Assembly: GCF_000270205.1 (NCBI RefSeq)
Contig: NC_015913.1
Coordinates: forward strand, 90,001-122,000
Reading direction: 5' to 3'
DNA from: Candidatus Arthromitus sp. SFB-mouse-Japan
GTDB taxonomy: Bacteria; Bacillota; Clostridia; Clostridiales; Clostridiaceae
DNA length: 32,000 bases
The notes under the pieces were generated by a model. It worked only from the letters and a program-made list of their open reading frames with translations. It did no database searches and had not been told where the DNA came from. Positions 2,278-30,363 of this stretch are shown piece after piece. Position numbers and translations under genes: made by a program. Within the stretch, counting starts at the first letter, position 1; each line of letters starts with the position of its first letter.

Positions 2278-2453
2278 GATTTTATATATGAATTTTTGGG
2301 AATTAATTTCAAAAGGTATATCTATATGTGGAGTGTTTTTGATTTTTTATATAGTTTTGACGCTCATAAAAAATTATATATTTAATGATTTTTGATTTGG
2401 AGAATTTTTGATATTAGGATTTTTTATAAAAATTTGGATTATGGGGAGTGAAG

Positions 2454-3662: not shown

Positions 3663-5065
3663 ATAAGAACTTGAAAATAATATCATTTATGTTTTCGTTT
3701 TTATTCCTAGTTATTATATCTTCTTTAATATATTTTTTGGTATTTAGATCTACATATTATTCGAATCATAGTTTAAATAAAAGAATATCACAAGAAAGAT
3801 CTAAGTTTATCAGAGGGAAAATTTTAGATAGAGATGGAAATGTGGTAGCGTACACAACTGAAGATGGACAAAAAAGGATTTATCCTTATGGTGAGGCTTT
3901 AGTACATCCAATAGGTTATGCAGATATTAAATATGGGATGTCTGGAATTGAAAATGATATGGATGAGTATTTGAGGGAACCAAGAGGATTTATAAGCAGT
4001 ATCAAATCTTTTTTTGGTTATGAGGATGTACATGGTAGTGATGTTAAATTAACTATAGATAGTGAACTTCAGAGTTACGCATATGAATCTTTAGGAAATA
4101 ATAAGGGAGCTATTGTTGTTATGAATCCTAAAACTGGGGAGATTTATGCTCTTGTGAGTAAACCATCGTTTGATCCAAATAATTTAAATGAGATTTGGGA
4201 TAGTTTGATAATGGAAGGGACTGCTCCTTTGTATAATAGAGCGATAAACGGTAAGTATCCACCAGGATCTACCTTTAAGGTTATAACATCAGCTTCATCT
4301 ATAGAAAATATTGATGGTGCACTTAATAGAAAATTTAAGGATGATGGTTTTATTGATTTTAATGGAGTAGATAAATTATATAATCAAAACAGGATAGCCT
4401 TTGGAGAGATGAGTTTGAAGGATGCCTTTATAAGATCTAGTAATGTTGTATTTGGAAATTTAGCGTTAGAACTTGGAAATAGTGAACTTAAAAAGTATGC
4501 TGAAAGATTCTATTTTAATAGGGATTTGGATTTGAAAGGGTTAAATGTTTCTAATAGTTATTTTCCGGAATTAAATGATCATGAGACTGGACTTATTGCA
4601 CAAACTGGAATTGGTCAGGGGTCTATATTAGTTACTCCGATTAATCTTGCTTTAATATCGAGTGCGATTGCAAATAATGGTATTATGATGAGGCCTTACA
4701 TAGTAGATGAAGTATTAAATTCATATGGAGATATTATAAACAAGTGTTCAAAGTTTATATTATCTAAGCCTATAAAATGTAAGACTGCATCTATTATATC
4801 TTCATATATGAGGGGCGTTGTTGAGAATAATTTATCTCATATAAGTGAATTTTCATCTATTAAGGCAGTTGGAAAAACGGGAACTGCAGATTATAAAAAT
4901 GGAGATGAAGATGGTGTTCCTCATTCTTTATTTATAGGTTTTGCCCCATATGATAATCCTAAAGTTTCTATATCAGTAGTAGTTGAAGGTGGAGGAGAAG
5001 GTAGAGGAATTGCATCTGAGATTTCTTCTAATGTTATGAAAAAAGCGATTGAATTGATTGAGTAA
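3659..5065 (+). CDS. Class-B penicillin-binding protein (transpeptidase), short PbpA/PBP2-like form
   Basis: N-terminal membrane anchor followed by transpeptidase motifs STFK (SxxK), SSN (SxN) and KTGT. Translationally coupled to the upstream SEDS gene. Confidence 0.9.
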   Translation: MNKNLKIISFMFSFLFLVIISSLIYFLVFRSTYYSNHSLNKRISQERSKFIRGKILDRDGNVVAYTTEDGQKRIYPYGEALVHPIGYADIKYGMSGIENDMDEYLREPRGFISSIKSFFGYEDVHGSDVKLTIDSELQSYAYESLGNNKGAIVVMNPKTGEIYALVSKPSFDPNNLNEIWDSLIMEGTAPLYNRAINGKYPPGSTFKVITSASSIENIDGALNRKFKDDGFIDFNGVDKLYNQNRIAFGEMSLKDAFIRSSNVVFGNLALELGNSELKKYAERFYFNRDLDLKGLNVSNSYFPELNDHETGLIAQTGIGQGSILVTPINLALISSAIANNGIMMRPYIVDEVLNSYGDIINKCSKFILSKPIKCKTASIISSYMRGVVENNLSHISEFSSIKAVGKTGTADYKNGDEDGVPHSLFIGFAPYDNPKVSISVVVEGGGEGRGIASEISSNVMKKAIELIE

Positions 5066-5090: not shown

Positions 5091-6956
5091 GTGTTTGATA
5101 TAAAGTATAATATTAGTATTTTGCCAGAATCTCCTGGGGTTTATATAATGAAAGATAGCAATACGAATGTTATATACATTGGTAAGGCTAAGAATTTAAA
5201 AAAAAGAGTTTCGCAATATTTTAGAAAAACTCAGAATCATTCAGAAAAAACTAGATCTCTTGTAAAAAATATATTAGAGTTTGAATACATAGTAACCGAA
5301 AATGAGATAGAAGCATTGATATTAGAGGATAGTTTGATAAAGAAGTATCAGCCTAAGTATAATATTTTACTTAAAGATGATAAGACATATCCATTTATAA
5401 AGATAACAACAAATGAGGATTTTCCAAGGATATTTTCTACGAAGAATTATATAAAAGATGGAAATTTATATTTTGGTCCTTTTACTTCTATGAATTCTGT
5501 TAATGAGATAATATCACTTGTTAAGAGTTATTTTTTAATAAGAAATTGTAAAATACATATAAAAGATGGAGTCATATCATGTAGACCATGTATTTATTAT
5601 CAAACTAAGAGATGCAAAGCACCTTGTTATGGACTTATATCAAAAATTGAATATAATGAAATGATAAAAGAAATTATTGATATATTAAGTGGTAAAAGTA
5701 AAGACTCTATTTTAAATTTATTGAAGAATCAAATGCTTAGACACTCTGAAAATTTGGAGTATGAGCAGGCTATGAGTATAAGAGATAAAATAGAGGGTAT
5801 AAAACTAATTTTTGAGAAGCAAAGCATTTTTTCTGGGAGAGAGAACTCTGAAGATTATATAAATATTTTTAGATATGATAATGAAGCGTGTGTACAGATA
5901 TTTTTTCTAAGGAATGGAAGAGTAGTTGGAAGAGAGCATTTTATATTTGAAAATATTATGGGTGATAATGATGAACATATAATTGAACAGTTTATTAAGA
6001 GTTATTATGGAGGCACCACTCAAATTCCCAATTATATATATTCACCAGAGTTTTTAGATAAAGATAATATAGAGAAATGGATTAATATAAAATCTAAAAG
6101 GAAAGTTTATTTTAAATCTCCAAAGAGTGGTGAAAAAAAAGAGTTATTTGATTTAGTAAGGAAAAATGCAAGAATTATGCTCGATAAATTTAAGAATAAT
6201 AAGTATTTATGTTCAGTTGAGAGAAAGAGTGAGTATTTGGATGAACTTAAAGATGTTTTAGGTTTAGAATTTAAGATAGATAGAATTGAAGCTTATGATA
6301 TTTCCAATATAAGCGGATTTGATTCAGTTGGTAGCATGGTTGTATTTAATAATGGAATACCTAATAAAACTCAGTATAGAAGGTTTAAAATAAAAAATGT
6401 ACAAGGTTCTGATGATTATAAAAGTATGAAAGAAATATTGAATAGGAGATTTGAGCATGCCTTGAAAGAAATTAAATGTATACAGGAAGGTGAATTAGAG
6501 CATACTTATGGGAAATTTTGTATATTTCCAGATTTGATATTAGTAGATGGTGGACGTGGACATATTAGTTCGGTAGAAGAGGTTCTTGAAAAGTTTAATA
6601 TAAATTTACCTGTTTGTGGAATGGTTAAGGATGATAGGCATAGAACTAGGGGACTTGTATATAAAAATCAAGAGTTGAATATTTCAAGTACATTGATTAA
6701 ATTTATTACAAGAGTGCAAGATGAAGTTCATAGATATGCTATAACTTATCATAGGAGTTTAAGAGATAGGAGAAGTTTGGGTTCTATACTAGATGAAATA
6801 CCTAATATTGGGAGTAAAAGGAGGAGAGAACTTTTGATGTATTTTAATAGTGTTGATGCTATTAAAAAGGCATCAATAGATGAGCTTTTAAAGGTCCCAA
6901 GCATGAATAAATCAGCAAGTGAATCGATATTAGAGTTTTTTAATAAGAGTAGATAG
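5091..6956 (+). CDS. uvrC: Excinuclease ABC subunit C
   Basis: GIY-YIG N-terminus (PGVYIMKD..IYIGKAKNLKKRVSQY), a UVR-domain region (EYEQAMSIRDKI) and a C-terminal HhH-like region. GTG start follows AGGTGG. Confidence 0.95.
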   Translation: MFDIKYNISILPESPGVYIMKDSNTNVIYIGKAKNLKKRVSQYFRKTQNHSEKTRSLVKNILEFEYIVTENEIEALILEDSLIKKYQPKYNILLKDDKTYPFIKITTNEDFPRIFSTKNYIKDGNLYFGPFTSMNSVNEIISLVKSYFLIRNCKIHIKDGVISCRPCIYYQTKRCKAPCYGLISKIEYNEMIKEIIDILSGKSKDSILNLLKNQMLRHSENLEYEQAMSIRDKIEGIKLIFEKQSIFSGRENSEDYINIFRYDNEACVQIFFLRNGRVVGREHFIFENIMGDNDEHIIEQFIKSYYGGTTQIPNYIYSPEFLDKDNIEKWINIKSKRKVYFKSPKSGEKKELFDLVRKNARIMLDKFKNNKYLCSVERKSEYLDELKDVLGLEFKIDRIEAYDISNISGFDSVGSMVVFNNGIPNKTQYRRFKIKNVQGSDDYKSMKEILNRRFEHALKEIKCIQEGELEHTYGKFCIFPDLILVDGGRGHISSVEEVLEKFNINLPVCGMVKDDRHRTRGLVYKNQELNISSTLIKFITRVQDEVHRYAITYHRSLRDRRSLGSILDEIPNIGSKRRRELLMYFNSVDAIKKASIDELLKVPSMNKSASESILEFFNKSR

Positions 6957-6981
6957 ACTTAATTATAAGGGGAAAATTTGT

Positions 6982-7902
6982 ATGTATAGTGATTATAAGA
7001 TTTTATTAGAACGGTTAAAATTTATTTTATCCTCTGAAAAAATAAGGATGGATGAGTTGATGAAAAAACATACAACTTTTAAATTAGGTGGAATTTGCGA
7101 TATTATGATTTTTCCATCAACTGAAGAAGAACTTATAGAATCTATAAAATGTATTATAAAGAATAAAGTTCCTTACTTTATTCTAGGGTGTGGATCTAAT
7201 ATTTTAGTTAAGGATAAGGGTATTAGGGGAGTTGTGGTAAATCTAACTAAATTTAATAAAATAGTTGTCGAGAATAATATAATAAGAGCTCAATCTGGGT
7301 CAAGTTTATCAGATATAGCTACGATTGCAAAAGACAACTCACTATCTGGATTTGCTTTTGCCTGTGGAATACCTGGAACTATTGGAGGCGCTGTAAATAT
7401 GAATGCGGGAGCATATGGTGGAGAAATGAGTAATATTGTACTTGGAGTTAGGGTTATTGATTTAAATGGAGAAGTATTTTATATATCTAGGGAAAATATG
7501 GAGTTCGGATATAGAACAACTACAATAATGAAAAATAAGTATTTAGTTATAAGTTGTGATATATCTTTAAAAAGGGGTAGAAAAGAAGAAATTTACGATG
7601 AAATGAAGGAATTAATGTACAAAAGAAAATTGAAACAACCTATTGAGTATCCTTCAGCAGGAAGCATTTTTAAACGTCCTGAAGGTTATTTTGCAGGAAA
7701 GCTTATAGATGATTGTGGTCTTAGAGGTTATATACACAAAAATGTAATGGTATCTGAGAAACATTGTGGATTTATTGTCACAAGAAATGAAAATGCCACA
7801 ACTAGTGAAGTTTTAGAATTAATAAATATAGTAAAAGACAAGGTATACAATAAATTTAATGTTATATTAGAGATGGAAGTAAAGGTTGTTGGAGAGGATT
7901 AG
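6982..7902 (+). CDS. murB: UDP-N-acetylenolpyruvoylglucosamine reductase
   Basis: 306 aa with an FAD-binding MurB signature (TFKLGG, GCGSNILV, GIPGTIGGAVNMNAGAYG) and the C-terminal SAGSIFKRP motif. Confidence 0.93.
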   Translation: MYSDYKILLERLKFILSSEKIRMDELMKKHTTFKLGGICDIMIFPSTEEELIESIKCIIKNKVPYFILGCGSNILVKDKGIRGVVVNLTKFNKIVVENNIIRAQSGSSLSDIATIAKDNSLSGFAFACGIPGTIGGAVNMNAGAYGGEMSNIVLGVRVIDLNGEVFYISRENMEFGYRTTTIMKNKYLVISCDISLKRGRKEEIYDEMKELMYKRKLKQPIEYPSAGSIFKRPEGYFAGKLIDDCGLRGYIHKNVMVSEKHCGFIVTRNENATTSEVLELINIVKDKVYNKFNVILEMEVKVVGED

Positions 7903-8795: not shown

Positions 8796-9785
8796 GTGGA
8801 GTTATTTAATAAATTTTGCAATAATCCTAAAGTTGTGGTTATAGGAGGTGGGACAGGCATTCCGACAATTCTTAGGGGAATTAAAAAGTTTACCAATTGC
8901 ATTACATCAGTAGTTACTGTCGCTGATGATGGTGGAGGATCTGGGATTTTAAGAGATGAGTTAGGGATATTACCACCTGGGGATATAAGAAATTGTTTGA
9001 TAGCACTTGCAAATACAGAACCTATAATGGAAGAACTTTTGAAATATAGGTTTAGTGATGGTAATCTAAAAAATCAAAGTTTTGGGAATCTATTTATAGC
9101 AGCTATGATAGGAATTACTAATAATTTTGAGAGTGCAATAAAGGCTATAAGTGATGTTTTAGCTATAACAGGTAAGGTATTACCTGTTACTAATGAGAAT
9201 ATAGTTCTTGAAGCTAAACTACATAATGGAATTATTGTTAGAGGTGAATCTAAAATTCCTGAAGAGGTAATAAAATATAATAGCAATATTAAGGAAATAT
9301 CAATAATACCTAGTGATGCAAAACCTATAAATGATTGCATTAATGAAATATTAAATGCTGATGCTATTGTTTTTGGACCAGGAAGTTTATATACAAGTAT
9401 ATTGCCTAATTTAAAGATAAAAGGAATTTGTGATTCTATAAACAAAAATAATGGAAAGCATATTTATGTGGCTAATATTATGACTCAATATGGTGAAACT
9501 CAGGGTTATACTCTATATGATCATGTTAAAAGCATATTTTATAATACGGATATTTTAAAACTAGATTATATTATTGTAAATGATGGCAAATTATCTAGAG
9601 AATATGAGAAAAGATATAAGATTAAAAATTCTGAGCTTGTATATTGTGATTATGAGAAATTTGAGAATATGAACGTAAAAATAGTTAAGGATAATTTGAT
9701 AAAAATAGAAAATGGTTTTATAAGACATGATGAAGATAAAGTATCTAAAATTATAATGAATATTATTAATCATGATTTCAAATAA
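8796..9785 (+). CDS. YvcK-like gluconeogenesis factor (CofD/UPF0052 family)
   Basis: N-terminal VIGGGTGIPTILRGIK and a GPGSLYTSILPNL motif. Sits in the conserved rapZ-yvcK-whiA gene order. GTG start after GGGAG. Confidence 0.85.
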   Translation: MELFNKFCNNPKVVVIGGGTGIPTILRGIKKFTNCITSVVTVADDGGGSGILRDELGILPPGDIRNCLIALANTEPIMEELLKYRFSDGNLKNQSFGNLFIAAMIGITNNFESAIKAISDVLAITGKVLPVTNENIVLEAKLHNGIIVRGESKIPEEVIKYNSNIKEISIIPSDAKPINDCINEILNADAIVFGPGSLYTSILPNLKIKGICDSINKNNGKHIYVANIMTQYGETQGYTLYDHVKSIFYNTDILKLDYIIVNDGKLSREYEKRYKIKNSELVYCDYEKFENMNVKIVKDNLIKIENGFIRHDEDKVSKIIMNIINHDFK

Positions 9786-19773: not shown

Positions 19774-19807
19774 ACATTAGTATCTTTTGATACTAATGTT
19801 TTTTTTG
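19774..19807 (+). terminator. Rho-independent terminator after pyk
   Basis: ACATTAGTATC (19774-19784), loop TTTT, GATACTAATGT (19789-19799), then a T8 run. It overlaps the N-terminal extension of the next ORF in the ORF track, which argues against that extension. Confidence 0.7.
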
Positions 19808-19831
19808 ATTAAGGAGGAAAATTTTTTAAGT

Positions 19832-21217
19832 ATGGTGGATGTTGCTAATAAGTACATAGTAAAGATTGAGGATTATGATAGTAAGGGAAATGGAGTTTCA
19901 CATATAGACGATTTAGTTGTTTTTGTACCTAATACCATAGTTGGCGAAATTGTTGAGATATGTATAGAAAAGGTAAATAAGAATTTTTTAAGAGGTAGAG
20001 TTAATGAAGTGCTTTCAGTATCTGAATCAAGAGTATTGCCTATATGTGAGATATATGAAAAATGTGGTGGATGTAATATTCAGCACATGAATTATAAGGA
20101 GCAAATTAGATTTAAAGAAAGTAAAATAATAAATACATTAAATAAAATAGGTGATATACGGAATATTAAGATGGAAAAATTCTATGCGATGTCTATTCCA
20201 TATGAGTATAGGAATAAAGTTCAGGTACCATTTGGATTAAGTGATTCTGGTGTTAAAGCTGGATTTTATGAAAAAAATACTCATAATATTATCAATATGG
20301 ACTTCTGTCATATACAGTTTCACGAAGGTAATGATATTGTTAAGGAAACTAGAGAATATATAAAAAAAAATAATATAAAGCCTTATGATGAGAGTGCTAA
20401 TTATAAAAAAGGTTGTGATTATGGTCTTGTAAGACATTTGCTCATTAGAAAGGGATATAATACAAATGAAATCATGCTTGTAATTGTGTTAACTAGAGAT
20501 GACGAGGAATTTTTAAATGGGTATATGGATTTTATATTAGAAAAATTTAAGAATATAAAGACAATAATAGTTAACGTAAATAATGAAATAACAAATGTTA
20601 TTCTTGGAAAATACGAGAGGGTATTGTATGGTGATGGTTATATAAAAGACAAGATAAATGATTTTATATTTAGAATACATAGTAAATCATTTTTTCAGGT
20701 TAATACAAAACAATCTGAGAAGTTATATTCGGCTGCAATTGAAATGTGTGATTTAAAATTTGGAGATATTCTTCTAGATGCTTATTGTGGGATTGGTACC
20801 ATAGGTATATGTGCAAGTAGAAAAATAAAGCAGGTCTATGGTATAGAGGAAGTTAAAGAGAGCATAGTTGATGCTAATGAAAATAAGATTATAAATAATA
20901 TTAAAAATATAGAATTTATACATGGTAAGGTTGAAGATGAAATATTTAATTTAGTAAATAGCGGGGTTAATATAAATGCTGTTATTTTAGATCCTCCAAG
21001 AAAGGGTGTAAAGGAGAGGGTCTTACATAAAATAAGAGATATTAACTGTAGAAAAATAGTTTATATTTCATGTGATGTATCGACTCTCTCTAGAGATGCT
21101 AAGATATTAAATTCCCTTGGCTATAAGATTGATAAAATTAGAGGAGTTGATATGTTTTGTCAAACATATCATGTAGAAACTATTGTTAGATTTACTTTGC
21201 GACCATCTGGATTTTAA
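19832..21217 (+). CDS. 23S rRNA (uracil-5-)-methyltransferase, RlmD/RumA family
   Basis: TRAM-like N-terminus, Fe-S cysteine cluster CEIYEKCGGC, SAM motif LDAYCGIGTIG and catalytic-Cys region VYISCD. The ATG at 19832 is preferred because the TTG at 19787 lies inside the pyk terminator. The start remains uncertain because the SD spacing is long. Confidence 0.85.
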   Translation: MVDVANKYIVKIEDYDSKGNGVSHIDDLVVFVPNTIVGEIVEICIEKVNKNFLRGRVNEVLSVSESRVLPICEIYEKCGGCNIQHMNYKEQIRFKESKIINTLNKIGDIRNIKMEKFYAMSIPYEYRNKVQVPFGLSDSGVKAGFYEKNTHNIINMDFCHIQFHEGNDIVKETREYIKKNNIKPYDESANYKKGCDYGLVRHLLIRKGYNTNEIMLVIVLTRDDEEFLNGYMDFILEKFKNIKTIIVNVNNEITNVILGKYERVLYGDGYIKDKINDFIFRIHSKSFFQVNTKQSEKLYSAAIEMCDLKFGDILLDAYCGIGTIGICASRKIKQVYGIEEVKESIVDANENKIINNIKNIEFIHGKVEDEIFNLVNSGVNINAVILDPPRKGVKERVLHKIRDINCRKIVYISCDVSTLSRDAKILNSLGYKIDKIRGVDMFCQTYHVETIVRFTLRPSGF

Positions 21218-21255: not shown

Positions 21256-21284
21256 TTGCCTACATAAAATTAATATGTAGGCAA
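21256..21284. repeat. 11-bp perfect inverted repeat at the chromosome/prophage junction
   Basis: TTGCCTACATA (21256-21266) and TATGTAGGCAA (21274-21284) around a 7-nt loop. The repeat spans the integrase stop codon. Confidence 0.6.
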
Positions 21285-22460
21285 TATTATATTTTCAAAT
21301 ATATCTACTGATTGTTTAGCTAACTTATCTGTATTATGGGTATAAGTATTAAGTGTAGTTTGAATATTATTATGTCCTAGTCTATGTTGTACATCTTTAA
21401 TGTTAGCACCATTTTCAACTAGTAATGTAGCGTGGGTGTGTCTTAATGAGTGGAAATTAAAAGGTATACCTAATTCATAATTAATAACACGCGACGCGTA
21501 TTTAAATGAATCTGGTGTTAATAACATTCCGTTACTTTTTACGCACACCATATTTAATAAATGTTCTTTTAAATTTAGAGAACTTGTTGTGATTTTATCA
21601 TTTATGTTGTATTGTTTTATATAATGTTCTCCGTATTCTAAGCGTTTAATATCAATATATCTTTTATGATACTTTAGTGCGTTTTTCAAGGTATTACCTA
21701 TATTAATTATTCTGCTAGAGGAGGTGGTCTTAGGTTCACCAAAATACCAAGACGTATCCTTTTTATATATTAGTTTGTTAATATTGATTGTGTTATTATC
21801 TAAATCAATGTCATCCCACGTTAAACCCATTGCTTCACCTATGCGACAACCAGTATGATAACCAATCATTAAAGGGATATAGAAAGATGATCTTTCGGGA
21901 AAGCGTTTTATTATAGCGTTAAAATCATCATTAGTTATAATTTTATGTTTATCTGTAGTTTTGGTATTATTATACTTAGGAATTTTAACATATTGCATAG
22001 GGTTATTCTTTAGAAAATTCATAGGATGTACTGAGTAGTTAAGGGAACCACTCAATAAGGATATTATATTATTTAGATGATTTTTTGATATACCAGTTAA
22101 ATATTTGCTATTTATAAAATCTTGTAATTTACCAGGAGTTAAAGAAGTTAATTTTAAAATGCCTAAAGAGGGTTTAATATGTTTATCTATTATTAATCTA
22201 TAAGAGCGTTGAGTATTGTATCTGCAATTTAACAGTACATAAGCATCAAACCATAAATCCATATAATCTGATACTGATATATTTGTTTTTTGAAGTTGTT
22301 CACCATTTTCGTAATCTTCCAAAGCCTTTCTTAAAGCTGCTTCAGCTTCTTTTTTGGTTCTACCTCCAACTCTTTCAATCCTTTTTCTTTTTCCGTCGAC
22401 CCTAGCTGCCTCAAACGAGTAATACCACTTGTCTCCTCGTTTTCTAACACTTCCGGTCAT
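21270..22460 (-). CDS. int: Phage tyrosine integrase
   Basis: 396 aa. Catalytic region GCRIGEAMGLTWDDIDL, HSLRHTHATLL, LGH....T...YTH (R..HxxR..Y). SD GGAGATATAAAA precedes the ATG. Confidence 0.93.
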   Translation of the reverse strand: MTGSVRKRGDKWYYSFEAARVDGKRKRIERVGGRTKKEAEAALRKALEDYENGEQLQKTNISVSDYMDLWFDAYVLLNCRYNTQRSYRLIIDKHIKPSLGILKLTSLTPGKLQDFINSKYLTGISKNHLNNIISLLSGSLNYSVHPMNFLKNNPMQYVKIPKYNNTKTTDKHKIITNDDFNAIIKRFPERSSFYIPLMIGYHTGCRIGEAMGLTWDDIDLDNNTININKLIYKKDTSWYFGEPKTTSSSRIINIGNTLKNALKYHKRYIDIKRLEYGEHYIKQYNINDKITTSSLNLKEHLLNMVCVKSNGMLLTPDSFKYASRVINYELGIPFNFHSLRHTHATLLVENGANIKDVQHRLGHNNIQTTLNTYTHNTDKLAKQSVDIFENIILPTY

Positions 22461-22522
22461 TTTTATATCTCCTTTTTGATTTAATTTTACACGGGATTAT
22501 ATATAAAAGTAAATATAATAGT
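22458..22522. repeat. Integrase start plus upstream region, copy a of a ~65-bp repeat (copy b at 25466-25532)
   Basis: CAT..TTATATCTCC-TTTTTGATTTAATTTTACA..GGAATT/GGGATT..ATAAAAGTAAA.ATAATAGT is shared between the two copies, by eye. Confidence 0.75.
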
Positions 22523-22694
22523 AAATGTGATAGTTTATGCTGCGAATTAATCATAAATAGTTAATTGATGCTTTGTTTAATTTTATAATATTCTGAAAAG
22601 CATATCAATTCCTATTAAATTGTTATAAAATATAACCATAATAATTGAATATATTTAATACTAAAATATTATAATATTAAAGGGTGGTGATCTT

Positions 22695-23999
22695 ATGTTT
22701 ACTGGTATTAAGCTTAAGAATTTTAAATCACTAGTTGATTTTGAAGTTAAATTCCCTAGAAATAGAAAATTAGTTATAATTTATGGAGAAAATGGTGTTG
22801 GAAAATCTAATTTTATAGATGCCTTTAGTATTTTGAGAAAACTAGTTACTGGTAGACCCTTTGATGTAGATGATTTTTTGGAATTGGCAAATCTTAAATT
22901 CAATCACGGTCTTAGTAATATAGACATGGATGCTGAAGTTATTACAGATTTGTTTAAGACATCTAACCTTAAAAGGATTATTGAGTCATGTAAGACTATA
23001 AACTCAGAAGGCGAAAATATGGTATTATCATTTGACTTTACTTTAAGAGGAAAAAAAGGATCGTATATTATAGAAACTGATGATAATAGGCTAATATCTG
23101 AGAGATTAGAATATGTATATAATAAGCAAATTGTTGAATTCTTTAATGTTAATAATGATGAAATTTATTTAAACGAAAAAGTGATAAAAAATAAAGAATA
23201 TTACGAAGAACTGATAAATAATTGTGAAAAGTATTGGGGTAAAAATACTTTGACGTCTATGATATTTAAAGATATACAGTCAAAAAACGATAAGTATATG
23301 TCTAAATCTCTGACTAAGAATATGATAGAGATAATCGATTACTTTAGTAGTTTAAATATTAGTGTCAGTGGTCAAATCTTATTTCCTGGTTTACATTTAG
23401 GTGAAGGAATTACACAGATGTCAAATCAGGCAGAACTAGATAAGAATGAAAAAATTTTGGATGATATATTCACTCGTTTATATCCAGATATAAAACAGGT
23501 GTATTACAAAAAAGAGATAATTGATGATGGTAAAATAAATTATAAGTTGTACTTTAAAAAGCTTGTAGGTAATAAAATTTTAGATATAGATATTGAACGA
23601 GAGTCTAAAGGTACCAAACAAGTATTAAATATAACGAAACAAATTTTATATGGTTTAGATAAACAAGTGTTAATCATCGATGAATTTGATACAGGTATAC
23701 ATGATATATTAGCTAAATCTATGTTGCAGAGTTTATATGATAGTTTAGATATGCAAATAATTATTACTACGCATAATACATTACTCATAGAAGCTAAAGA
23801 CTTATGTAAAAACGCATATGTACTAACGCATAATATTGATGGAAGTAAGGATATGATAGCTATATCTGATTTTGAAAAAAGAATCCATAGTAATTTAAAT
23901 ATTAGAGATAGATATCTAAGAGGAATGTATGGAGGTGTGCCAATCCCGCTCGATATAGATTTTTCTGATTATAGTGATGCTAATTTGGAGGATTGTTAG
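22695..23999 (+). CDS. ABC/AAA_21-type ATPase (COG1106-like; AbiLi / AriA / OLD-ATPase-like), defence candidate
   Basis: Walker A GENGVGKSNF at residues ~31-40, signature-like ESKGTKQVL, Walker B/D-loop VLIIDEFDTGIH, H-loop ITTHN and a C-terminal RDRYLRGMYGGVP tail. SD GGTGGTGA precedes the ATG. Confidence 0.8.
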   Translation: MFTGIKLKNFKSLVDFEVKFPRNRKLVIIYGENGVGKSNFIDAFSILRKLVTGRPFDVDDFLELANLKFNHGLSNIDMDAEVITDLFKTSNLKRIIESCKTINSEGENMVLSFDFTLRGKKGSYIIETDDNRLISERLEYVYNKQIVEFFNVNNDEIYLNEKVIKNKEYYEELINNCEKYWGKNTLTSMIFKDIQSKNDKYMSKSLTKNMIEIIDYFSSLNISVSGQILFPGLHLGEGITQMSNQAELDKNEKILDDIFTRLYPDIKQVYYKKEIIDDGKINYKLYFKKLVGNKILDIDIERESKGTKQVLNITKQILYGLDKQVLIIDEFDTGIHDILAKSMLQSLYDSLDMQIIITTHNTLLIEAKDLCKNAYVLTHNIDGSKDMIAISDFEKRIHSNLNIRDRYLRGMYGGVPIPLDIDFSDYSDANLEDC

Positions 24000-24587
24000 A
24001 TGGGAGGTAAGAAAGCACAAATACAGTATTTACGCTGTATACTAATTTGTCATGGCAAATCAGAAAAAGAATTTATGGAGACTATAAAGCAAAATTTACG
24101 TTTAAAGATACACATAGAGTCAGATAAAAAAGGAAGTAAGTCTATTCAGATAAATAGTCTGAATAAGACTTTGAAAAATCACAAGTATGGTAAACGTGAT
24201 AATTTTTTAAGATATTTTGAGGATATAGAATTAATAAAAGGTAAAATAACATCTGAGTTTAAAATTTTTACGTTATTGGATACGGATGATAAAGAAAAAG
24301 AAATAAACTTGATAAAATATTTGAATAAAGAAATGTTTAAAGAGCATCATCTTTATGATCATATAGTACCTATTTATAATACTCCTAATTTAGAAAGTGT
24401 TTTTGAAGAAATTGGTCATGTATTTAAGAATAAAGGCGAGGCAAGAAAAAGAGAGTATAAAGATTTATTGAAACCATATCCAACCCCTAAACTTGCTCGG
24501 AATTATTTAAAAGATTTATCGGGAAAATTTGAAAAGAGCAAAAACACTAATCTTAATCATGTTATTAATTTTCTCCTTAATATATAA
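24000..24587 (+). CDS. Small Toprim-like partner protein (RloB / DUF4276 / AbiLii-like), defence candidate
   Basis: The ATG abuts the ATPase stop (TAGATG) and is preceded by GGAGG. The N-terminal ILICHGKSEKEF resembles the CEGxxTE strand-turn of RloB-type Toprim proteins. A later LLDTDD resembles the Toprim DxD motif. Family assignment is from memory of motifs, not from a search. Confidence 0.6.
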   Translation: MGGKKAQIQYLRCILICHGKSEKEFMETIKQNLRLKIHIESDKKGSKSIQINSLNKTLKNHKYGKRDNFLRYFEDIELIKGKITSEFKIFTLLDTDDKEKEINLIKYLNKEMFKEHHLYDHIVPIYNTPNLESVFEEIGHVFKNKGEARKREYKDLLKPYPTPKLARNYLKDLSGKFEKSKNTNLNHVINFLLNI

Positions 24588-24602: not shown

Positions 24603-24768
24603 GAAATATAAGCTTACATTAAATTTATAAGTGCTTCGCGAAGCTATATTAATACTTGATTGTAGTAGAATACTTGGTATTGCTATTCATAGATGAATTA
24701 TGTAGAATATTAGTGTTCGCAAAAATAGTATGTCTATTTATGATTAGCAGCTGTTTTTAAATTTAACG
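24603..24768 (+). promoter_or_regulatory. CRISPR leader 1 (166 bp) with predicted sigma-70-type promoter
   Basis: Near-identical to 26605-26770 (about 3 substitutions by eye). -35 TTGCTA (24680-24685), 17-nt spacer, -10 TAGAAT (24703-24708). Contains the palindrome GCTTCGCGAAGC at 24633-24644. Confidence 0.6.
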
Positions 24769-24999
24769 GTCGCACCTCACGCAGGTGCGTGGATTGAAAT
24801 GAGGATAAAGGAGTTGGCAATTTACATAGTGCATCGTCGCACCTCACGCAGGTGCGTGGATTGAAATTACGTAGTTCTATAACTTTACCAATTATGTGTA
24901 GTCGCACCTCACGCAGGTGCGTGGATTGAAATATATCTAATATTTTAGCTAACTCTAACTGAGTCAGGTCGCACCTCACGTAGGTGCGTGGATTGAAGG
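24769..24999 (+). CRISPR. Mini-CRISPR array 1: four 32-bp repeats and three spacers (35/33/35 bp); type I-C-like repeat
   Basis: Repeats GTCGCACCTCACGCAGGTGCGTGGATTGAAAT at 24769-24800, 24836-24867, 24901-24932 and 24968-24999. The last repeat is degenerate (C14T, terminal AT>GG). Internal hairpin GCACCT/AGGTGC. The leader lies upstream and the degenerate repeat is distal, which gives + orientation. Confidence 0.93.
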
Positions 25000-25014
25000 T
25001 GCCAGACATATAAT

Positions 25015-25048
25015 AAAACCCCACTTGAAATTAATCAGGTGGGGTTTT
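25015..25048. terminator. Bidirectional hairpin between array 1 and the truncated repressor
   Basis: AAAACCCCAC (25015-25024) pairs with GTGGGGTTTT (25039-25048), with A/T runs on both sides. Confidence 0.6.
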
Positions 25049-25434
25049 AAAATCTCCGTCTAAGTTCTACGACCTTTCCGATTATGTGTATAGGTTTATC
25101 TGCAATGTCATTTTTATCGTAGTACATAGGCTCATATCTAGGATTTAACGACACAAGGCTTATACCGTCCTTGTGTTTTATTATTTTTTTACACGTTGCC
25201 TCGTCACCATTAACGCAGACTATAGCTATGTCTCCAGAGTTAACGTCTTGCTGTTTCCTGACTATTACGACATCTCCAGCATCCATTGTGGGAGACATCG
25301 AATCACCCTTGATTACGAGAGCAAAATACTCTCCTTGAGATGCAAGTTTAGGTGATATCTCTTCCCAACCGATAATTTCTTCAATCGCCGTTATGGGTAT
25401 ACCAGCTATAACAGTACCTAGTATGGGTATTTTA
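25047..25434 (-). pseudogene. 5'-truncated copy of the LexA-like repressor (S24 peptidase domain only)
   Basis: Homologous to 27113-27499. Encodes KIPILGTVIAGIPITAIEE..GDSMSPTMDAGD..HIIGKVVELRRRF but has no HTH domain. The reading frame has no start codon upstream of MSPTMD. Homology stops at ~25434. Confidence 0.8.
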
Positions 25435-25465
25435 ATAGCTTTATTGGATTGATCAGATCTGGAAT

Positions 25466-25532
25466 CATTTATTATATCTCCTTTTTTGATTTAATTTTAC
25501 AAGGAATTAGACATAAAAGTAAAGATAATAGT
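25466..25532. repeat. Copy b of the integrase-start/upstream repeat
   Basis: On the minus strand GGAGATATAATAAATGA matches the int SD plus ATGA (GGAGATATAAAAATGA), and similarity continues upstream. No integrase ORF follows: the ATG opens only a 16-codon frame. Confidence 0.75.
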
Positions 25533-25604: not shown

Positions 25605-26375
25605 TTGGTGAAGAAGGAGATAATATGGGGGTGTTTAAACATGGAAGAAAAAGAAAAGTTGCTTAAAAAATCTAAAGAAATTTTTAGCTTAGTTAGTTGT
25701 ATGTATTGTTATTATAGTGGTCCTTATAAAATTGAAACTGTTTGTATTTTATTATGTAATGCTTGGGAATTAATGTTGAAAGCTTATATAATCGGTAAGA
25801 AGGGGAAAGAAGGAATAGTATATAAAAATAAACAGAATAAGGGTAGGACTATTGGATTAAATGAATGTATAAGTAAAGTATTTACGAATAAGCATGATAT
25901 ATTACGTAAACATTTGGAGTCTGTAATTAGATATAGGAATTCGGTTGTACATTATACAGTTGATAGTTTTGACTTATCTTTATACTCTAAAATAGAGTAT
26001 TGTATAGTGAATTTTAAAGCGAAAATGTGTGAACTTCACAATGTTAATATGTCCGATATGATAGTTAACCAGGCTAATGAAGAAATCTTAAAAAATGATG
26101 TCGATTTGTATAAGTATAGTAAAAAGAGTTTGTGTAGGGAAATAAATAATGTATTGAAATCTTTGGGGATTGAGTTTAAAATCGATAGTCAATCCTTTGA
26201 ATTGTTTGATAGGGTGTACGGAATTAAAGAAAATAAAGAGTATTGTCTTATAAGTAATGTTAATAACAGGCCATCTTATAGATATTCATCAAGAGTTTTA
26301 AATTTTATCGTAGGATTGATACAAAAAAATCCTAACAATATTAAAGAAGTCTTAAAGAATAAAATAAAAAAATAA
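25605..26375 (+). CDS. HEPN-like (Rx4H motif; DUF3644-like) protein, abortive-infection/toxin candidate
   Basis: The motif NAWELMLKAYII, then ~55 residues, then IRYRNSVVHY (R-N-S-V-V-H = Rx4H) matches my recollection of DUF3644/HEPN proteins. The start is ambiguous: TTG 25605 in the ORF track or ATG 25641. Confidence 0.6.
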   Translation: MVKKEIIWGCLNMEEKEKLLKKSKEIFSLVSCMYCYYSGPYKIETVCILLCNAWELMLKAYIIGKKGKEGIVYKNKQNKGRTIGLNECISKVFTNKHDILRKHLESVIRYRNSVVHYTVDSFDLSLYSKIEYCIVNFKAKMCELHNVNMSDMIVNQANEEILKNDVDLYKYSKKSLCREINNVLKSLGIEFKIDSQSFELFDRVYGIKENKEYCLISNVNNRPSYRYSSRVLNFIVGLIQKNPNNIKEVLKNKIKK

Positions 26376-26604: not shown

Positions 26605-26770
26605 GAAATATAAGCTTACATTAAATTTATAAGTGCTTCGCGAAGCTATATTAATACTTGATTGTAGTAGAATAATTGGTATTGCTATTCATAGATGAAT
26701 TATGTAGAATATTAGTGTTCGCAAAAATGGTGTGTCTATTTATGATTAGCAGCTGTTTTTAAATTTAACG
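26605..26770 (+). promoter_or_regulatory. CRISPR leader 2 (166 bp) with predicted promoter
   Basis: Duplicate of leader 1. -35 TTGCTA (26682-26687), 17-nt spacer, -10 TAGAAT (26705-26710). Palindrome GCTTCGCGAAGC at 26635-26646. Confidence 0.6.
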
Positions 26771-27067
26771 GTCGCACCTCACGCAGGTGCGTGGATTGAA
26801 ATTTATTTGTCCAAATTCTAAGTTGTCAAATATTTTGTCGCACCTCACGCAGGTGCGTGGATTGAAATTAGTAGGCTTGTCCTCCTTACTTTTAAACTCC
26901 CGTCGCACCTCATACAGGTGCGTGGATTGAAATTAAGATTTTTTATTGATGTGTACATAATCACCCCTGTCGCACCTCACGCAGGTGCGTGGATTGAAAT
27001 CTTTATAATGGATTTGCTTTATGAGTTATTTAGATGTCGCACCTCACGCAGGTGCGTGGATTGAAGG
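26771..27067 (+). CRISPR. Mini-CRISPR array 2: five 32-bp repeats and four spacers (34/33/35/35 bp); same repeat family
   Basis: Repeats at 26771-26802, 26837-26868, 26902-26933 (loop variant CATAC), 26969-27000 and 27036-27067 (terminal AT>GG, as in array 1). Confidence 0.93.
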
Positions 27068-27082
27068 TGTCATACATATAAT

Positions 27083-27114
27083 AAAAACCACTTGAAATTA
27101 ATCGAGTGGTTTTT
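27083..27114. terminator. Bidirectional hairpin between array 2 and the repressor gene
   Basis: AAAAACCACT (27083-27092) pairs with AGTGGTTTTT (27105-27114). Confidence 0.6.
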
Positions 27115-27826
27115 AAAATCTCCGTCTAAGTTCTACGACTTTACCAATTATGTGTATAGGTTTGCTTACAATGTCATTTTTATCATAGTACATAGGCTCA
27201 TATCTAGGATTTAACGACACAAGGCTTATACCGTCCTTGTGTTTTATTATTTTTTTACATGTTGCTTCATCACCATTAACGCAAACTATAGCTATGTCTC
27301 CAGAGTTAACGTCTTGCTGTTTCCTGACTATTACGACATCTCCAGCATCCATTGTGGGAGACATGGAGTCTCCTTTAATTTTTAACGCAAAGTACTCTCC
27401 TTGAGATGCAAGTTTAGGTGATATCTCTTCCCATCCGATAATCTCCTCAATCGCCGATATTGGGATACCCGCTATTACGGTGCCTAGTATGGGTATTTTT
27501 ACGCAGGCTTGTACGTTTAGACCAAGACCATTTTTATATGATATTACTTTAGTAGAACTGGTAACTTGTATAGGTTGCTGTGCATTGATAAATTCAATAT
27601 GATCTTGATCATTTAATAGTACGGATTCATCGATTCCTAATGCTTGGGCAATTATTTTAATTTTGGACTGAGGAATATCGTTGATACCAGTCTCTATCTT
27701 ATTTATTGTAGACCTAGCTTTATAACCGCACCTTTTTGCCAATTCATCTTGCGACAATCCACGCATTAGTCTAATACGTTTGATTTTGTCGCCTAGTTTC
27801 TTTTTTTCAATATTATTAGTATCCAT
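27113..27826 (-). CDS. Phage repressor, LexA/CI-like (Xre HTH + S24 peptidase)
   Basis: The N-terminal HTH (LSQDELAKRCGYKARSTINKIETG) is followed by an S24 domain with the GDSM Ser and a downstream Lys (CKKI). It is divergent from a cro-like gene. Confidence 0.92.
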   Translation of the reverse strand: MDTNNIEKKKLGDKIKRIRLMRGLSQDELAKRCGYKARSTINKIETGINDIPQSKIKIIAQALGIDESVLLNDQDHIEFINAQQPIQVTSSTKVISYKNGLGLNVQACVKIPILGTVIAGIPISAIEEIIGWEEISPKLASQGEYFALKIKGDSMSPTMDAGDVVIVRKQQDVNSGDIAIVCVNGDEATCKKIIKHKDGISLVSLNPRYEPMYYDKNDIVSKPIHIIGKVVELRRRF

Positions 27827-28185: not shown

Positions 28186-28258
28186 CAAAGTAATGATAAA
28201 TAACGATAAGTTACGCTAAGTTACAACTAGTTAAATAATAACGTAAAAATAGATTGAA
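28186..28258. repeat. Intergenic linker cassette, copy 1 (others at 28807-28866 and 30091-30144)
   Basis: TTACGCTAAGTTACAACTAGTTAAATAATAACGTAAAAATAGATTG resembles TTACGCTACGTTACAACTAAGTAAATAATAACATAAAAAGGAGATTG in copy 2. In copy 1 the SD is decayed (ATAGATT versus AGGAGATT) and no gene follows. Confidence 0.7.
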
Positions 28259-28614: not shown

Positions 28615-28806
28615 ATGAATAATTTAAAAAAAATTCGAAATAAAGCTGGTCTAACCCAGATGTATTTATCTAGTCTGATAAATATAAACGTGCGTAGCTA
28701 CCAGAGTATAGAGCTCGGTAAAAGTTTACCGAGAGTAGATAGAGCATTAGCAATAGCAAAGATATTAAATACAACTGTGGAAGAACTATTTGGTAAAGAT
28801 AAGTAA
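28615..28806 (+). CDS. Xre-family HTH protein (63 aa), rightward member of pair 2
   Basis: MNNLKKIRNKAGLTQMYLS..AKILNTTVEELFGKDK. SD AAAGGAGG. Paralogue of 29890-30090. Confidence 0.8.
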   Translation: MNNLKKIRNKAGLTQMYLSSLININVRSYQSIELGKSLPRVDRALAIAKILNTTVEELFGKDK

Positions 28807-28866
28807 TGCTAAATTACGCTACGTTACAACTAAGTAAATAATAACATAAAAAGGAGATTGAGACAA
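28807..28866. repeat. Intergenic linker cassette, copy 2
   Basis: Shares ..ATAATAACATAAAAAGGAGATTGAGACAA followed by ATGGCAAATGA with copy 3. The first five codons (MANDI) are shared by the two downstream genes. Confidence 0.7.
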
Positions 28867-28938
28867 ATGGCAAATGACATAAAAGTATTTGAGCATGATG
28901 AATTTGGACAAATAAGAACAGTTTTAATTAATGAATGA
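28867..28938 (+). pseudogene. Detached N-terminal fragment of the antirepressor Bro-N domain (frameshifted)
   Basis: A good SD is followed by ATG and MANDIKVFEHDEFGQIRTVLINE*. The tandem AATGAATG at 28930-28937 shifts the frame. Removing one AATG fuses this fragment in frame to the 28931 ORF (..IRTVLINDQTWFVGKDVARALGY). Confidence 0.65.
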
Positions 28939-29889: not shown

Positions 29890-30090
29890 TTGCATAATAA
29901 TTTAAAGCCAATCCGTGATAAATTGGGTCTTACCCAAAATCAGGTATCAGATATAGCGGAGATAACTTTGAGAAGCTACCAAAACTATGAATACAGTAAA
30001 CGGATACCTAAAGTAAACATCGCATTAGATATAGCAAAAGCTCTTAACACAACGGTGGAAGAACTATTTAGTAATGATAAATTACAATAA
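29890..30090 (+). CDS. Xre-family HTH protein (66 aa), rightward member of pair 3
   Basis: The TTG start lies 6 nt after AAGGAG. (M)HNNLKPIRDKLGLTQNQVS..AKALNTTVEELFSNDKLQ aligns with the 63-aa paralogue. The start at 29821 in the ORF track lies inside the promoter. Confidence 0.75.
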   Translation: MHNNLKPIRDKLGLTQNQVSDIAEITLRSYQNYEYSKRIPKVNIALDIAKALNTTVEELFSNDKLQ

Positions 30091-30144
30091 ATTACGTTAA
30101 GTAATGATAAGTAACATAATAACACAAAAAGGAGATTAGGACAA
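30091..30144. repeat. Intergenic linker cassette, copy 3
   Basis: AAATTACGTTAAGTAATGATAAGTAACATAATAACACAAAAAGGAGATTAGGACAA precedes ATGGCAAATGAT. Confidence 0.7.
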
Positions 30145-30363
30145 ATGGCAAATGATATTTTATACACTGTACCCGAGGTATCAAAATTGATTAAAACCAA
30201 TCCATCTTATGTTTACACATTAATAAGATTAGGATTACTACCAGCGCTAAAACTTGGGAGTTTAAAAGTAAGGAGGACAAGCCTATTAGATTTTTTAGAG
30301 AGATTTGAAGGCAAGGATTTAACAGATTTGGAACATATAAGAGATTTAGAAACAGGAGTGTAA
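30145..30363 (+). CDS. Excisionase/MerR-type HTH DNA-binding protein (Xis-like)
   Basis: 72 aa. YTVPEVSKLIKTNPSYVYTLIRLGLLPALKLGS.KVRRTSLLDFLE is typical of excisionase-family HTH_17 domains. Confidence 0.65.
   Translation: MANDILYTVPEVSKLIKTNPSYVYTLIRLGLLPALKLGSLKVRRTSLLDFLERFEGKDLTDLEHIRDLETGV

Follow-up and report, generated by a model that had tools for sequence, protein, structure and literature searches.

A prophage-borne ABC ATPase gene coupled to a small partner with histidine at the Toprim glutamate position: a candidate anti-phage module in Candidatus Arthromitus

Introduction

What does the two-gene operon beside the integrase of a segmented filamentous bacterium (SFB, Candidatus Arthromitus) prophage do, and what kind of protein is its second, unannotated product? 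The operon lies in a stretch of 32,000 nucleotides (nt) from contig NC_015913.1 (positions 90,001 to 122,000; hereafter the window, numbered from its first letter). It consists of gene A, which encodes an ATPase of the ATP-binding cassette (ABC)/AAA_21 type, and gene B, which encodes a protein of 195 amino acids (aa). An earlier note, made from the letters of the window, had proposed the pair as an anti-phage defence candidate with an atypical Toprim motif in B. On our analysis of the sequences and predicted structures, A/B most likely represents an anti-phage system of the AbiL/PARIS type in a form not yet described. Its B protein very probably derives from Toprim proteins and fills the niche of RloB and AbiLii. 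The B family has a near-invariant histidine at the position of the first conserved Toprim glutamate. We found no paper on the family, or on a His-for-Glu Toprim variant, in the literature searched.

Results

A tightly coupled and co-inherited gene pair

The operon comprises the following features:

22680..22689, + strand: purine-rich ribosome-binding stretch AAGGGTGGTG, 5 nt 5' of the gene A start codon (sequence reading)
22695..23999, + strand: gene A, open reading frame (ORF) for a 434-aa ABC/AAA_21 ATPase with a Rad50/SMC-like head, AbiLi-like
23987..23992, + strand: GGAGGA, ribosome-binding site of gene B within the 3' end of gene A (sequence reading)
24000..24587, + strand: gene B, ORF for a 195-aa protein of an unannotated 'HGKSE...DTDD' family with a predicted Toprim-derived fold

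The ORF list bears out the coordinates and sizes that the earlier note had assigned to both genes (434 and 195 aa), and the TAGATG coupling it described is present: the stop codon of gene A (TAG, 23997-23999) directly abuts the ATG of gene B (24000), with GGAGGA 7 nt upstream of that ATG. The junction, AGGAGGATT(G/C)TTAGATG, is kept in the relatives L092 and L093. A sigma-70-like match at 22645-22672 is weak, and a promoter scan found such sites no commoner than in shuffled sequence. Promoter and terminator scans of the AT-rich window were uninformative, and an Rfam search of it gave no match.

A profile search of 1.84 billion 50%-identity cluster representatives returned 387 representatives of the B family at E<=1e-3 and 112 at E<=1e-30 (a word-index search gave 14 relatives). 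They come from several phyla and are nearly all 185-210 aa long. A genome scan for B loci, for which a 13-sequence B alignment was used, located 66 loci in Bacillota, Fusobacterium, Gastranaerophilales/Melainabacteria, Mucispirillum, Brachyspira and one Bacteroidaceae bin. Wherever a locus has enough upstream sequence, an A homologue (31-48% identity) lies directly upstream of B on the same strand, and in 46 of the 47 complete pairs the two genes are separated by -29 to +19 nt. The distance matrices of A and B are correlated (Mantel r = 0.93, a value reached by 0 of 2000 permutations), and the ratio of nonsynonymous to synonymous substitution rates (dN/dS), determined against two relatives, is 0.10-0.18 for both genes, which indicates purifying selection. 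With 387 B relatives, constant adjacency and purifying selection on both genes, A and B are not a chance pair of ORFs.

The 111 nearest neighbours in the 66 genomes cover 141 Pfam families and include no recurrent third gene; about 11 of them are recombinases, integrases or transposases. Because co-inheritance is tight, no third gene recurs and recombinases and integrases stand among the neighbours, we conclude that the A/B module is self-contained and mobile. Mobile carriage is seen directly. In the temperate Oenococcus phage phi9805 the pair sits with the replication genes on one side and the terminase on the other, and a conjugative Enterococcus faecalis plasmid has it adjacent to a recombinase. 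L093, a related prophage from a metagenome, shows integrase, A and B (84% and 89% identity) and repressor in the same order as the window, without the CRISPR (clustered regularly interspaced short palindromic repeats) arrays described below. Across the integrase, just past its lysis genes, L093 also carries an AAA_21+RloB pair of the canonical kind (2037-4029), while the His-variant pair (6001-7896) adjoins the repressor. This coexistence of the two pairs around one integrase indicates that they are distinct systems, not variants of one.

In a Candidatus Arthromitus metagenome bin (L026, 100-630), the first ~21 codons of the ATPase remain (86% identity), followed after a further ~110 nt by partner residues 14-117 (72% identity); since only this remnant of the pair is left, the module has decayed in that lineage. 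In phi9805 (L083 4985-5600; NC_023559.1 around 9013-9630) the annotated start of the B homologue is too late, the true N-terminus, MNLPNYCRALAIVHGKSE, lying upstream, and the conserved C-terminal part (…KDYIKVFP…TNLTNLDVFINYCL) runs on in another frame, so that the gene is either frameshifted or mis-sequenced.

Gene A encodes an AbiLi-like ATPase

The assignment of A to the ABC/AAA_21 class, already made in the earlier note, holds: A matches Pfam AAA_21 (E 8.6e-17), and the best of its 54 PADLOC matches is AbiLi (PDLC02335; E 1.3e-40, 137.5 bits, residues 1-421). The AriA models (2.3e-18 and 1.1e-14) and mad3 (~2e-18) come well behind, and the Old and GajA models match in the P-loop region only (E about 1e-8). 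In NCBIfam the scores for MAD3, RecF, RecN and SMC are far under their cut-offs, the RecF and RecN matches being weak and N-terminal. At E<=1e-10 there are 785 homologues. The AlphaFold 2 (AF2) model has a predicted local distance difference test score (pLDDT) of 80, and its best Foldseek matches in the PDB are Rad50/SMC heads, the retron I-A ATPase and Septu PtuA (E about 5e-11). An alignment of 30 ATPase homologue sequences, A5, has invariant residues in each of the following elements:

22785..22808, + strand: Walker A/P-loop GENGVGKS, aa 31-38 (K37); G31, E32, N33, G34, G36 and K37 invariant
23601..23621, + strand: ABC signature-like motif ESKGTKQ, aa 303-309; E303, S304, G306 and T307 invariant
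23670..23690, + strand: Walker B and catalytic Glu, LIIDEFD, aa 326-332; D329 and E330 invariant
23766..23777, + strand: H-loop TTHN, aa 358-361; T358, T359, H360 and N361 invariant
23913..23942, + strand: C-terminal tail YLRGMYGGVP, aa 407-416; Y407, G410, Y412, G414 and P416 invariant

Every motif quoted in the earlier note is found in the proteins: GENGVGKS, LIIDEFD, TTHN and YLRGMYGGVP in the ATPase, and ICHGKSE and LLDTDD in B. Judging by its position, ESKGTKQ would be the equivalent of the ABC signature. The tail, which has low pLDDT in the model (50-65), is followed by an acidic end; the protein as a whole is acidic too (isoelectric point (pI) 5.3). A YLxGxxGxxP tail is common to the RloB-partnered ATPases L006 and L007, the E. 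faecalis plasmid copy and the Oenococcus phage copy.

Gene B belongs to a family with histidine at the glutamate position

B is a basic protein of ~23 kDa (pI 9.5; family median 9.0). Its conservation was counted over 119 diverse family members with a mean column identity of 26%, and is marked in four elements:

24045..24065, + strand: motif 1, ICHGKSE, aa 16-22, running from the close of predicted strand 1 into helix 1; H18 where Toprim proteins have Glu, E22 at +4
24126..24152, + strand: KKGSKSIQI, aa 43-51, conserved Gly past predicted strand 2; G45 102/119, I49 108/119, Q50 93/119
24273..24290, + strand: motif 2, LLDTDD, aa 92-97, DxD(D) closing predicted strand 3; D94 117/119, D96 112/119 (and Glu in 4 more), D/E97 103/119
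24369..24401, + strand: motif 3, PIYNTPNLESV, aa 124-134, predicted strand 4 followed by an acidic-residue helix (E132); P124 116/119, I125 113/119, N127 92/119, E/D132 116/119

Within motif 1, G19 and E22 are each kept in 117 members and S/T21 in 109; further near-invariant residues are Y153 (110/119) and N184 (116/119). The earlier note had expected a first conserved Glu (CEG) and read His. That reading applies to the family at large: residue 18 is His in 114 of the 119 members and Glu in none, so that the substitution is a family-wide trait and not a local mutation. The conserved acidic cluster that it looked for is also there, as E22, D94, D96, D/E97 and E/D132.

Is B a Toprim-type protein?

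The definition of a Toprim domain (PMC6755086, after Aravind et al. 1998) comprises a parallel sheet of four strands packed between helices, an invariant Glu closing strand 1, an invariant Gly past strand 2 and a DxD closing strand 3. The AF2 model of B (pLDDT 89.1, predicted template modelling score 0.86) has strand 13-17, helix 20-33, strand 38-41, a helical insert, strand 88-94, helix 101-108, strand 122-127 and helix 131-137, followed by a C-terminal helical region. This alternation is the order expected of Toprim, with H18 past strand 1, G45 (102/119) past strand 2 (38-41), and D94-x-D96 (117/119 and 112/119) closing strand 3 (88-94). The top three Foldseek matches in the PDB are Toprim regions of class 2 OLD proteins (6nk8_A, 6njx and 6njw; E 8.5e-3 to 2.2e-2); ranks 1, 2, 3 and 5 are all OLD C-terminal (Toprim) regions (E 8.5e-3 to 5.3e-2), and lower ranks include type II topoisomerases and Ts OLD. 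Weak fold matches in BFVD include DnaG and topoisomerase Toprim entries. The metal-site residues of two characterised proteins are E400, E404, D455, D457 and E508 in the two-metal centre of BpOLD (PMC6755086) and E26, D30, D88, E90 and E122 in AriB (PMC11464382). H18, E22, G45, D94, D96 and E/D132 of B mirror the metal-binding residue spacing of OLD and AriB, and the +4 spacing of H18 and E22 is that of E400/E404 and E26/D30. Finally, 18 of the 119 family members match the PADLOC AbiLii profile weakly (best 5.8e-5, 21.8 bits), in partial, gappy alignments over ~60 of 170 profile positions; mad4 is matched weakly by 4 and HEC-01B by 2.

The partners of distant A homologues on plasmids point the same way as to the slot that B fills. 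In those operons the B position holds 'RloB family' or DUF4276-like proteins with a hydrophobic strand and (E/D)G-x-[ST]-(E/D), then D-x-D or D-x-E, then an acidic-residue helix. The RloB-annotated partners read (C/G/T)EG in four cases and DG in one from Persicobacter, and two unannotated partners read VEGESD and GEGPSD. One such pair, on the Acinetobacter plasmid pNDM1_010055 (L087 1501-3369), has a DUF4276-like partner of 245 aa (LLLSGEGPSD…LFRDADG…SEAWLL) with its distant ATPase homologue and is inserted within a BREX-1 locus, between pglX and pglZ.

A number of findings weigh against reading the pair as an ATPase-plus-Toprim defence module. The B family lacks the invariant Glu that closes strand 1 in Toprim domains. 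The window's B protein has no significant match to Toprim, RloB, DUF4276, AriB or AbiLii models, and no match at E<=1 in Pfam, PADLOC, NCBIfam or PHROGs; searching its 119 relatives against Pfam gave scattered chance matches only, with RloB in 0/119 and any Toprim-type family in 0/119. A comparison of the B-family profile with a 32-sequence RloB alignment by hhalign was non-significant (E 0.043, probability 1.2%), the alignment itself being collinear, with HGK-SE paired to TEGxTE and MDTDD to FDKDD. The profile gave no significant match to single RloB sequences and nothing meaningful among the sequences of solved structures, and hidden Markov model (HMM) cross-searches between B and RloB, including eight diverse plasmid partners, scored <10 bits. 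The fold match to OLD is weak (E 8.5e-3, template modelling (TM) score 0.36). Toprim homology of B is therefore not proven by sequence statistics. Nor do the surroundings settle the matter: the nearest neighbours in the 66 genomes are mostly housekeeping genes, and about 9 of the 111 are of defence type (including type I restriction-modification S subunits, Drt2, LmuA, SoFic and PDC candidates), so that support from defence genes outside mobile elements is modest. Lastly, the AriB mutant E26A is inactive (PMC11464382), and with His at the equivalent position catalysis by B is not guaranteed. Of the Toprim-like character that had been proposed for B, most is supported, on evidence that falls short of a clean family assignment (the strand order of the model, OLD Toprim regions at the head of the PDB matches though weak, the acidic cluster and the weak AbiLii matches in 18 of 119 members); recognition of B itself by a profile HMM did not follow in any of the four libraries.

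A working, altered or dead active site

The near-invariance of H18, together with the preserved acidic cluster, favours a working over a dead active site. The family-wide replacement of the Toprim Glu by His would predict an altered metal preference or a general-base role. In its strongest form this becomes an account of its own, possible but tentative, in which the 'HGKSE' proteins are a catalytically distinct Toprim offshoot, their His acting as a ligand that favours Mn, Co, Zn or Fe over Mg, or as a general base, and the pairs constitute a separate, undetected anti-phage system. If that were true, the chemistry or substrate would be unlike those of RloB, AriB and OLD, which would explain why both kinds of pair coexist at the L093 integrase, and gut anaerobes (Bacillota, Fusobacterium, Brachyspira, Mucispirillum and Melainabacteria) would harbour the system widely.

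Somewhat less probable still, and in our judgement unlikely, is that B, though derived from Toprim, lost cleavage along with the Glu and serves as an adaptor or regulator. The module would then act through its ATPase only, in DNA or nucleoid binding as with RecR, or with B as an antitoxin or specificity factor for a toxic ATPase. RecR is a Toprim protein without cleavage activity. It is listed among the Toprim families (PMC6755086), and a dead B would fit the absence of the canonical Glu from 114 of 119 members, the inactivity of AriB E26A and the fact that no nuclease-family HMM recognises B. The pattern of replacement speaks for activity, however: a single, near-invariant and chemically competent His is not what random decay leaves behind, E22, D94, D96, D/E97 and E/D132 are kept at 87-98% (103-117 of 119) despite the low mean column identity, and gene B has a dN/dS of 0.10-0.18. 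In BpOLD, moreover, single metal-ligand substitutions including E400A had no discernible effect on cleavage (PMC6755086), so that the Glu is not indispensable in every Toprim nuclease.

Comparison with known systems

AbiL and MADS have been described as ATPase-plus-Toprim systems, and AbiL and PARIS give phage resistance (PMC13064643 for AbiL and PARIS). The closest likeness of A/B is to AbiL, an abortive-infection system of Lactococcus and likewise a two-gene operon with an ABC/Rad50-like ATPase first and a small, predicted Toprim/OLD-like protein second. The window's A is best matched by the AbiLi model, as given above, and its operon has the same ATPase-first bicistronic arrangement. AbiLii is reported to superimpose on the OLD Toprim structure 6NJV (PMC13064643), which belongs to the structure family that tops the fold search with B. 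The difference lies in the second component: B has no PADLOC AbiLii match at E<=1, and rule-based tools that need both components would therefore not call the system. A PLSDB search with the ATPase at E<=1 returned no Lactococcus record.

RloA/RloB pairs (an AAA_21 'ATP-binding protein' followed by RloB, PF13707), which are common on small plasmids, share the gene order and the tight or overlapping junction. Their plasmid ATPases are distantly homologous to A (21-26% identity), and the two checked for it (L006 and L007) have the YLxGxxGxxP tail. The partner is of similar size and has the same three-motif layout: strand-x-G-x-[ST]-E, D-x-D, and a strand with an acidic-residue helix. Judged by eye, motif 3 of B also resembles the RloB segment W-S-N-x3-F-E-x-W (E123 and W125 invariant, S118 and N119 at least 90%), although hhalign did not align the two segments. 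In RloB, on the other hand, E30, G31, T34 and E35 are invariant (alignment A3), whereas the B family has H18 and one residue fewer between the Gly and the Ser/Thr. B is not demonstrably a member of RloB: the window's B has no Pfam match, none of the 119 members matches RloB, the hhalign comparison is non-significant and the first Glu is replaced by His.

PARIS resembles A/B in combining an ABC ATPase with a separate Toprim effector, often on phages or satellites. E26, D30, D88, E90 and E122 of AriB have the order and near spacing of H18, E22, D94, D96 and E132 of B, and in both proteins the residue at the Toprim Glu position stands just ahead of the N-terminal helix. AriB is a 35-kDa protein with Glu at that position, whereas B is ~23 kDa with His. 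Membership in PARIS was discarded: A matches the AriA models at 2.3e-18 and 1.1e-14 against 1.3e-40 for AbiLi, and neither B nor its 119 relatives have an AriB/DUF4435 match.

The OLD family (P2 Old, the class 2 OLD proteins of Burkholderia and Xanthomonas, and Gabija GajA) links an ABC ATPase functionally to a Toprim nuclease, and its ExxxE...DxD...E two-metal layout is paralleled by HxxxE...DxD...E in B. The Glu ligand of metal A is a His in B, and the fold match has the low TM score already noted. Membership in OLD or Gabija was rejected because those proteins are fused single polypeptides; here there are two ORFs with a stop codon between them. MADS was set aside as well, with 40.7 bits for NCBIfam MAD3 against a cut-off of 420, weak mad4 matches in 4 of 119 relatives and no adjacent methyltransferase in the window.

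The surrounding prophage region

The features around the pair are:

21270..22460, - strand: prophage tyrosine integrase, divergent from the A/B pair (Pfam Phage_integrase 9.3e-27, with SAM-like and arm-binding domains)
24769..24999, + strand: CRISPR mini-array 1, directly 3' of gene B, 4 repeats and 3 spacers (array detection)
25605..26375, + strand: cargo 2, 256 aa, DUF3644 (5.2e-29) and an EC042_2821-like restriction-endonuclease-like domain (3.5e-15) (domain search)
26771-27067: CRISPR mini-array 2, 5 repeats and 4 spacers (array detection)
27113..27826, - strand: prophage repressor, helix-turn-helix (HTH) and S24 peptidase (Pfam Peptidase_S24 6.9e-29, HTH_3 3.4e-14)

Cro-like and antirepressor genes come after the repressor gene. 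With these flanks, the description of the site as a prophage slot between integrase and repressor is correct, and L093 has the same layout. Between the A/B pair and the repressor, and not mentioned in the earlier note, lie both mini-arrays, a repressor copy that is truncated, and a second cargo gene. An identical B protein occurs in SFB mouse genomes, for example AP012209.1; the window and that genome share 99.5% identity as far as position 24997, beyond which they diverge.

The integrase-proximal region is made of two homologous cassettes, 22457-22522 resembling 25465-25532 (90%) and 24603-25433 resembling 26605-27499 (83-85%). Each has the order integrase-upstream segment, cargo, CRISPR leader with mini-array, and repressor 3' end; the truncated repressor copy, 83 aa of the S24 repressor C-terminus, is at 25047-25298. 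The A/B pair is the cargo of the first cassette, and cargo 2, in the equivalent slot of the second, is a candidate for a further anti-phage gene. The surroundings thus lend support to a role of the pair in conflict. The layout points to recombination between two related prophages, or between their lysogeny modules, by which two different cargos were stacked.

Both arrays have the 32-nt repeat GTCGCACCTCACGCAGGTGCGTGGATTGAAAT and near-identical leaders (24603-24768 and 26605-26770). Such mini-arrays were already described for the SFB prophage SFBMP01 (Kuwahara et al. 2011, PMC3158464), for which no spacer matches were reported. The window and AP012209 (given as SFB-mouse-Japan; 6+4 spacers) have no spacer in common. 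As the flanks are 99.5% identical, this implies complete spacer turnover between strains. Spacer 2 of array 2 (26869-26901) matches the same prophage at 30256-30288 (- strand) with 1 mismatch in 33, at spacer position 3 (chance expectation about 1e-9). The target lies within a 72-aa HTH_17/excisionase-like ORF (30145..30363), the 5' flank on the protospacer strand is ATC, and target and flank are identical in SFB-mouse-Japan. It looks like a prophage spacer directed against near relatives of the prophage, the flank or the seed mismatch sparing the prophage itself.

Two further observations concern this region. Adjoining the integrase, a gene for a TRAM and U5-methyltransferase (RumA-like) protein forms one 476-aa ORF in the window (19787-21217) and is annotated as two genes (180 and 259 aa) in SFB-mouse-Japan (L078 5832-7218), which may reflect a strain-specific disruption beside the prophage attachment site or a difference in assembly or annotation. 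Near the Cro-like and antirepressor genes, the immunity/early region has an AT-rich element of ~61 nt with reiterated TAAGTTAC/TAAATTAC units in three copies (28189-28249, 28792-28852 and 30070-30130) and a 197-nt repeat (28684-28880 and 29962-30158, 72% identity); these may be operator or regulatory repeats.

Discussion

On balance we consider it rather probable that A/B is a self-contained, horizontally mobile module of an ABC ATPase and a small Toprim-type partner, like AbiL, RloAB and PARIS, sitting in a variable slot by the integrase. The best guide to how such a module might work is PARIS, in which the ATPase oligomer sequesters the Toprim effector until a phage protein triggers its ATP-dependent release, whereupon the effector cleaves tRNA (PMC13064643, PMC11464382). 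By analogy, A would oligomerise and hold its basic 23-kDa partner inactive in an A-B complex. A phage-derived cue, coupled to ATP binding or hydrolysis, would act as the trigger that releases or activates B. B would then cut nucleic acid with a metal centre formed by H18, E22, D94, D96 (D97) and E/D132, its substrate being tRNA or other RNA, as for AriB, or DNA, as for OLD. The defence phenotype would consist in stopping the infected cell or the incoming phage, and the lysogen, and hence the prophage, would be protected.

The pair might instead be primarily an addiction or stabilisation module, akin to a toxin-antitoxin pair, for the prophage, plasmid or island that carries it, with phage exclusion at most a side effect. 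We regard this as improbable, and more so than an inactive B. Carriage by a prophage, a temperate phage and a conjugative plasmid would suit such a role, as would a translationally coupled operon of two genes, and PARIS behaves as a type II toxin-antitoxin pair (review PMC13064643). Most members of the family are chromosomal, however, with housekeeping genes and no mobile-element genes nearest to them, and the related AbiL and PARIS confer phage resistance. The two roles are in any case compatible, so that the emphasis would shift more than the mechanism. A housekeeping function in DNA repair or chromosome maintenance (SbcCD-like or RecF/RecR-like), with an SMC/Rad50-like ATPase served by an accessory nuclease and unrelated to phage conflict, is very improbable: the best fold matches of A to Rad50/SMC heads, its weak N-terminal RecF and RecN matches, the many loci among core metabolic and repair genes (for example near uvrC in Fusobacterium) and a non-defence role for an archaeal OLD-family ATPase, reported in PMC12796447, would all be in keeping with it, but the pair is patchy across phyla in highly variable contexts (the 141 Pfam families among 111 nearest neighbours), is present on a prophage, a phage and a plasmid, has decayed in another SFB genome and is frameshifted or mis-sequenced in phi9805, and A falls far under the NCBIfam cut-offs for RecF, RecN and SMC.

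If the preferred reading of A/B as a mobile ATPase-plus-Toprim defence module is right, its architecture is a familiar one. Pairs combining an ABC ATPase with a Toprim protein (OLD, Gabija, PARIS, AbiL and MADS) are a major anti-phage theme, whose known extent is limited by the profile libraries with which it is surveyed. The value of the present case lies in a widespread, undetected family and in a clean natural substitution at a key catalytic position. Despite hundreds of distinct members in gut bacteria, the B family goes unseen in Pfam, NCBIfam, PADLOC and PHROGs, and defence censuses probably miss these loci. The change from Glu to His, at a residue whose Ala mutant inactivates AriB, amounts to a natural experiment on Toprim catalysis and metal use.

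SFB are important immunomodulatory gut symbionts with small genomes, and they are hard to culture. Their main prophage stacks the A/B pair, a second nuclease-like cargo and two CRISPR mini-arrays beside its integrase, and would make a compact case of a prophage arming its host against rival phages.

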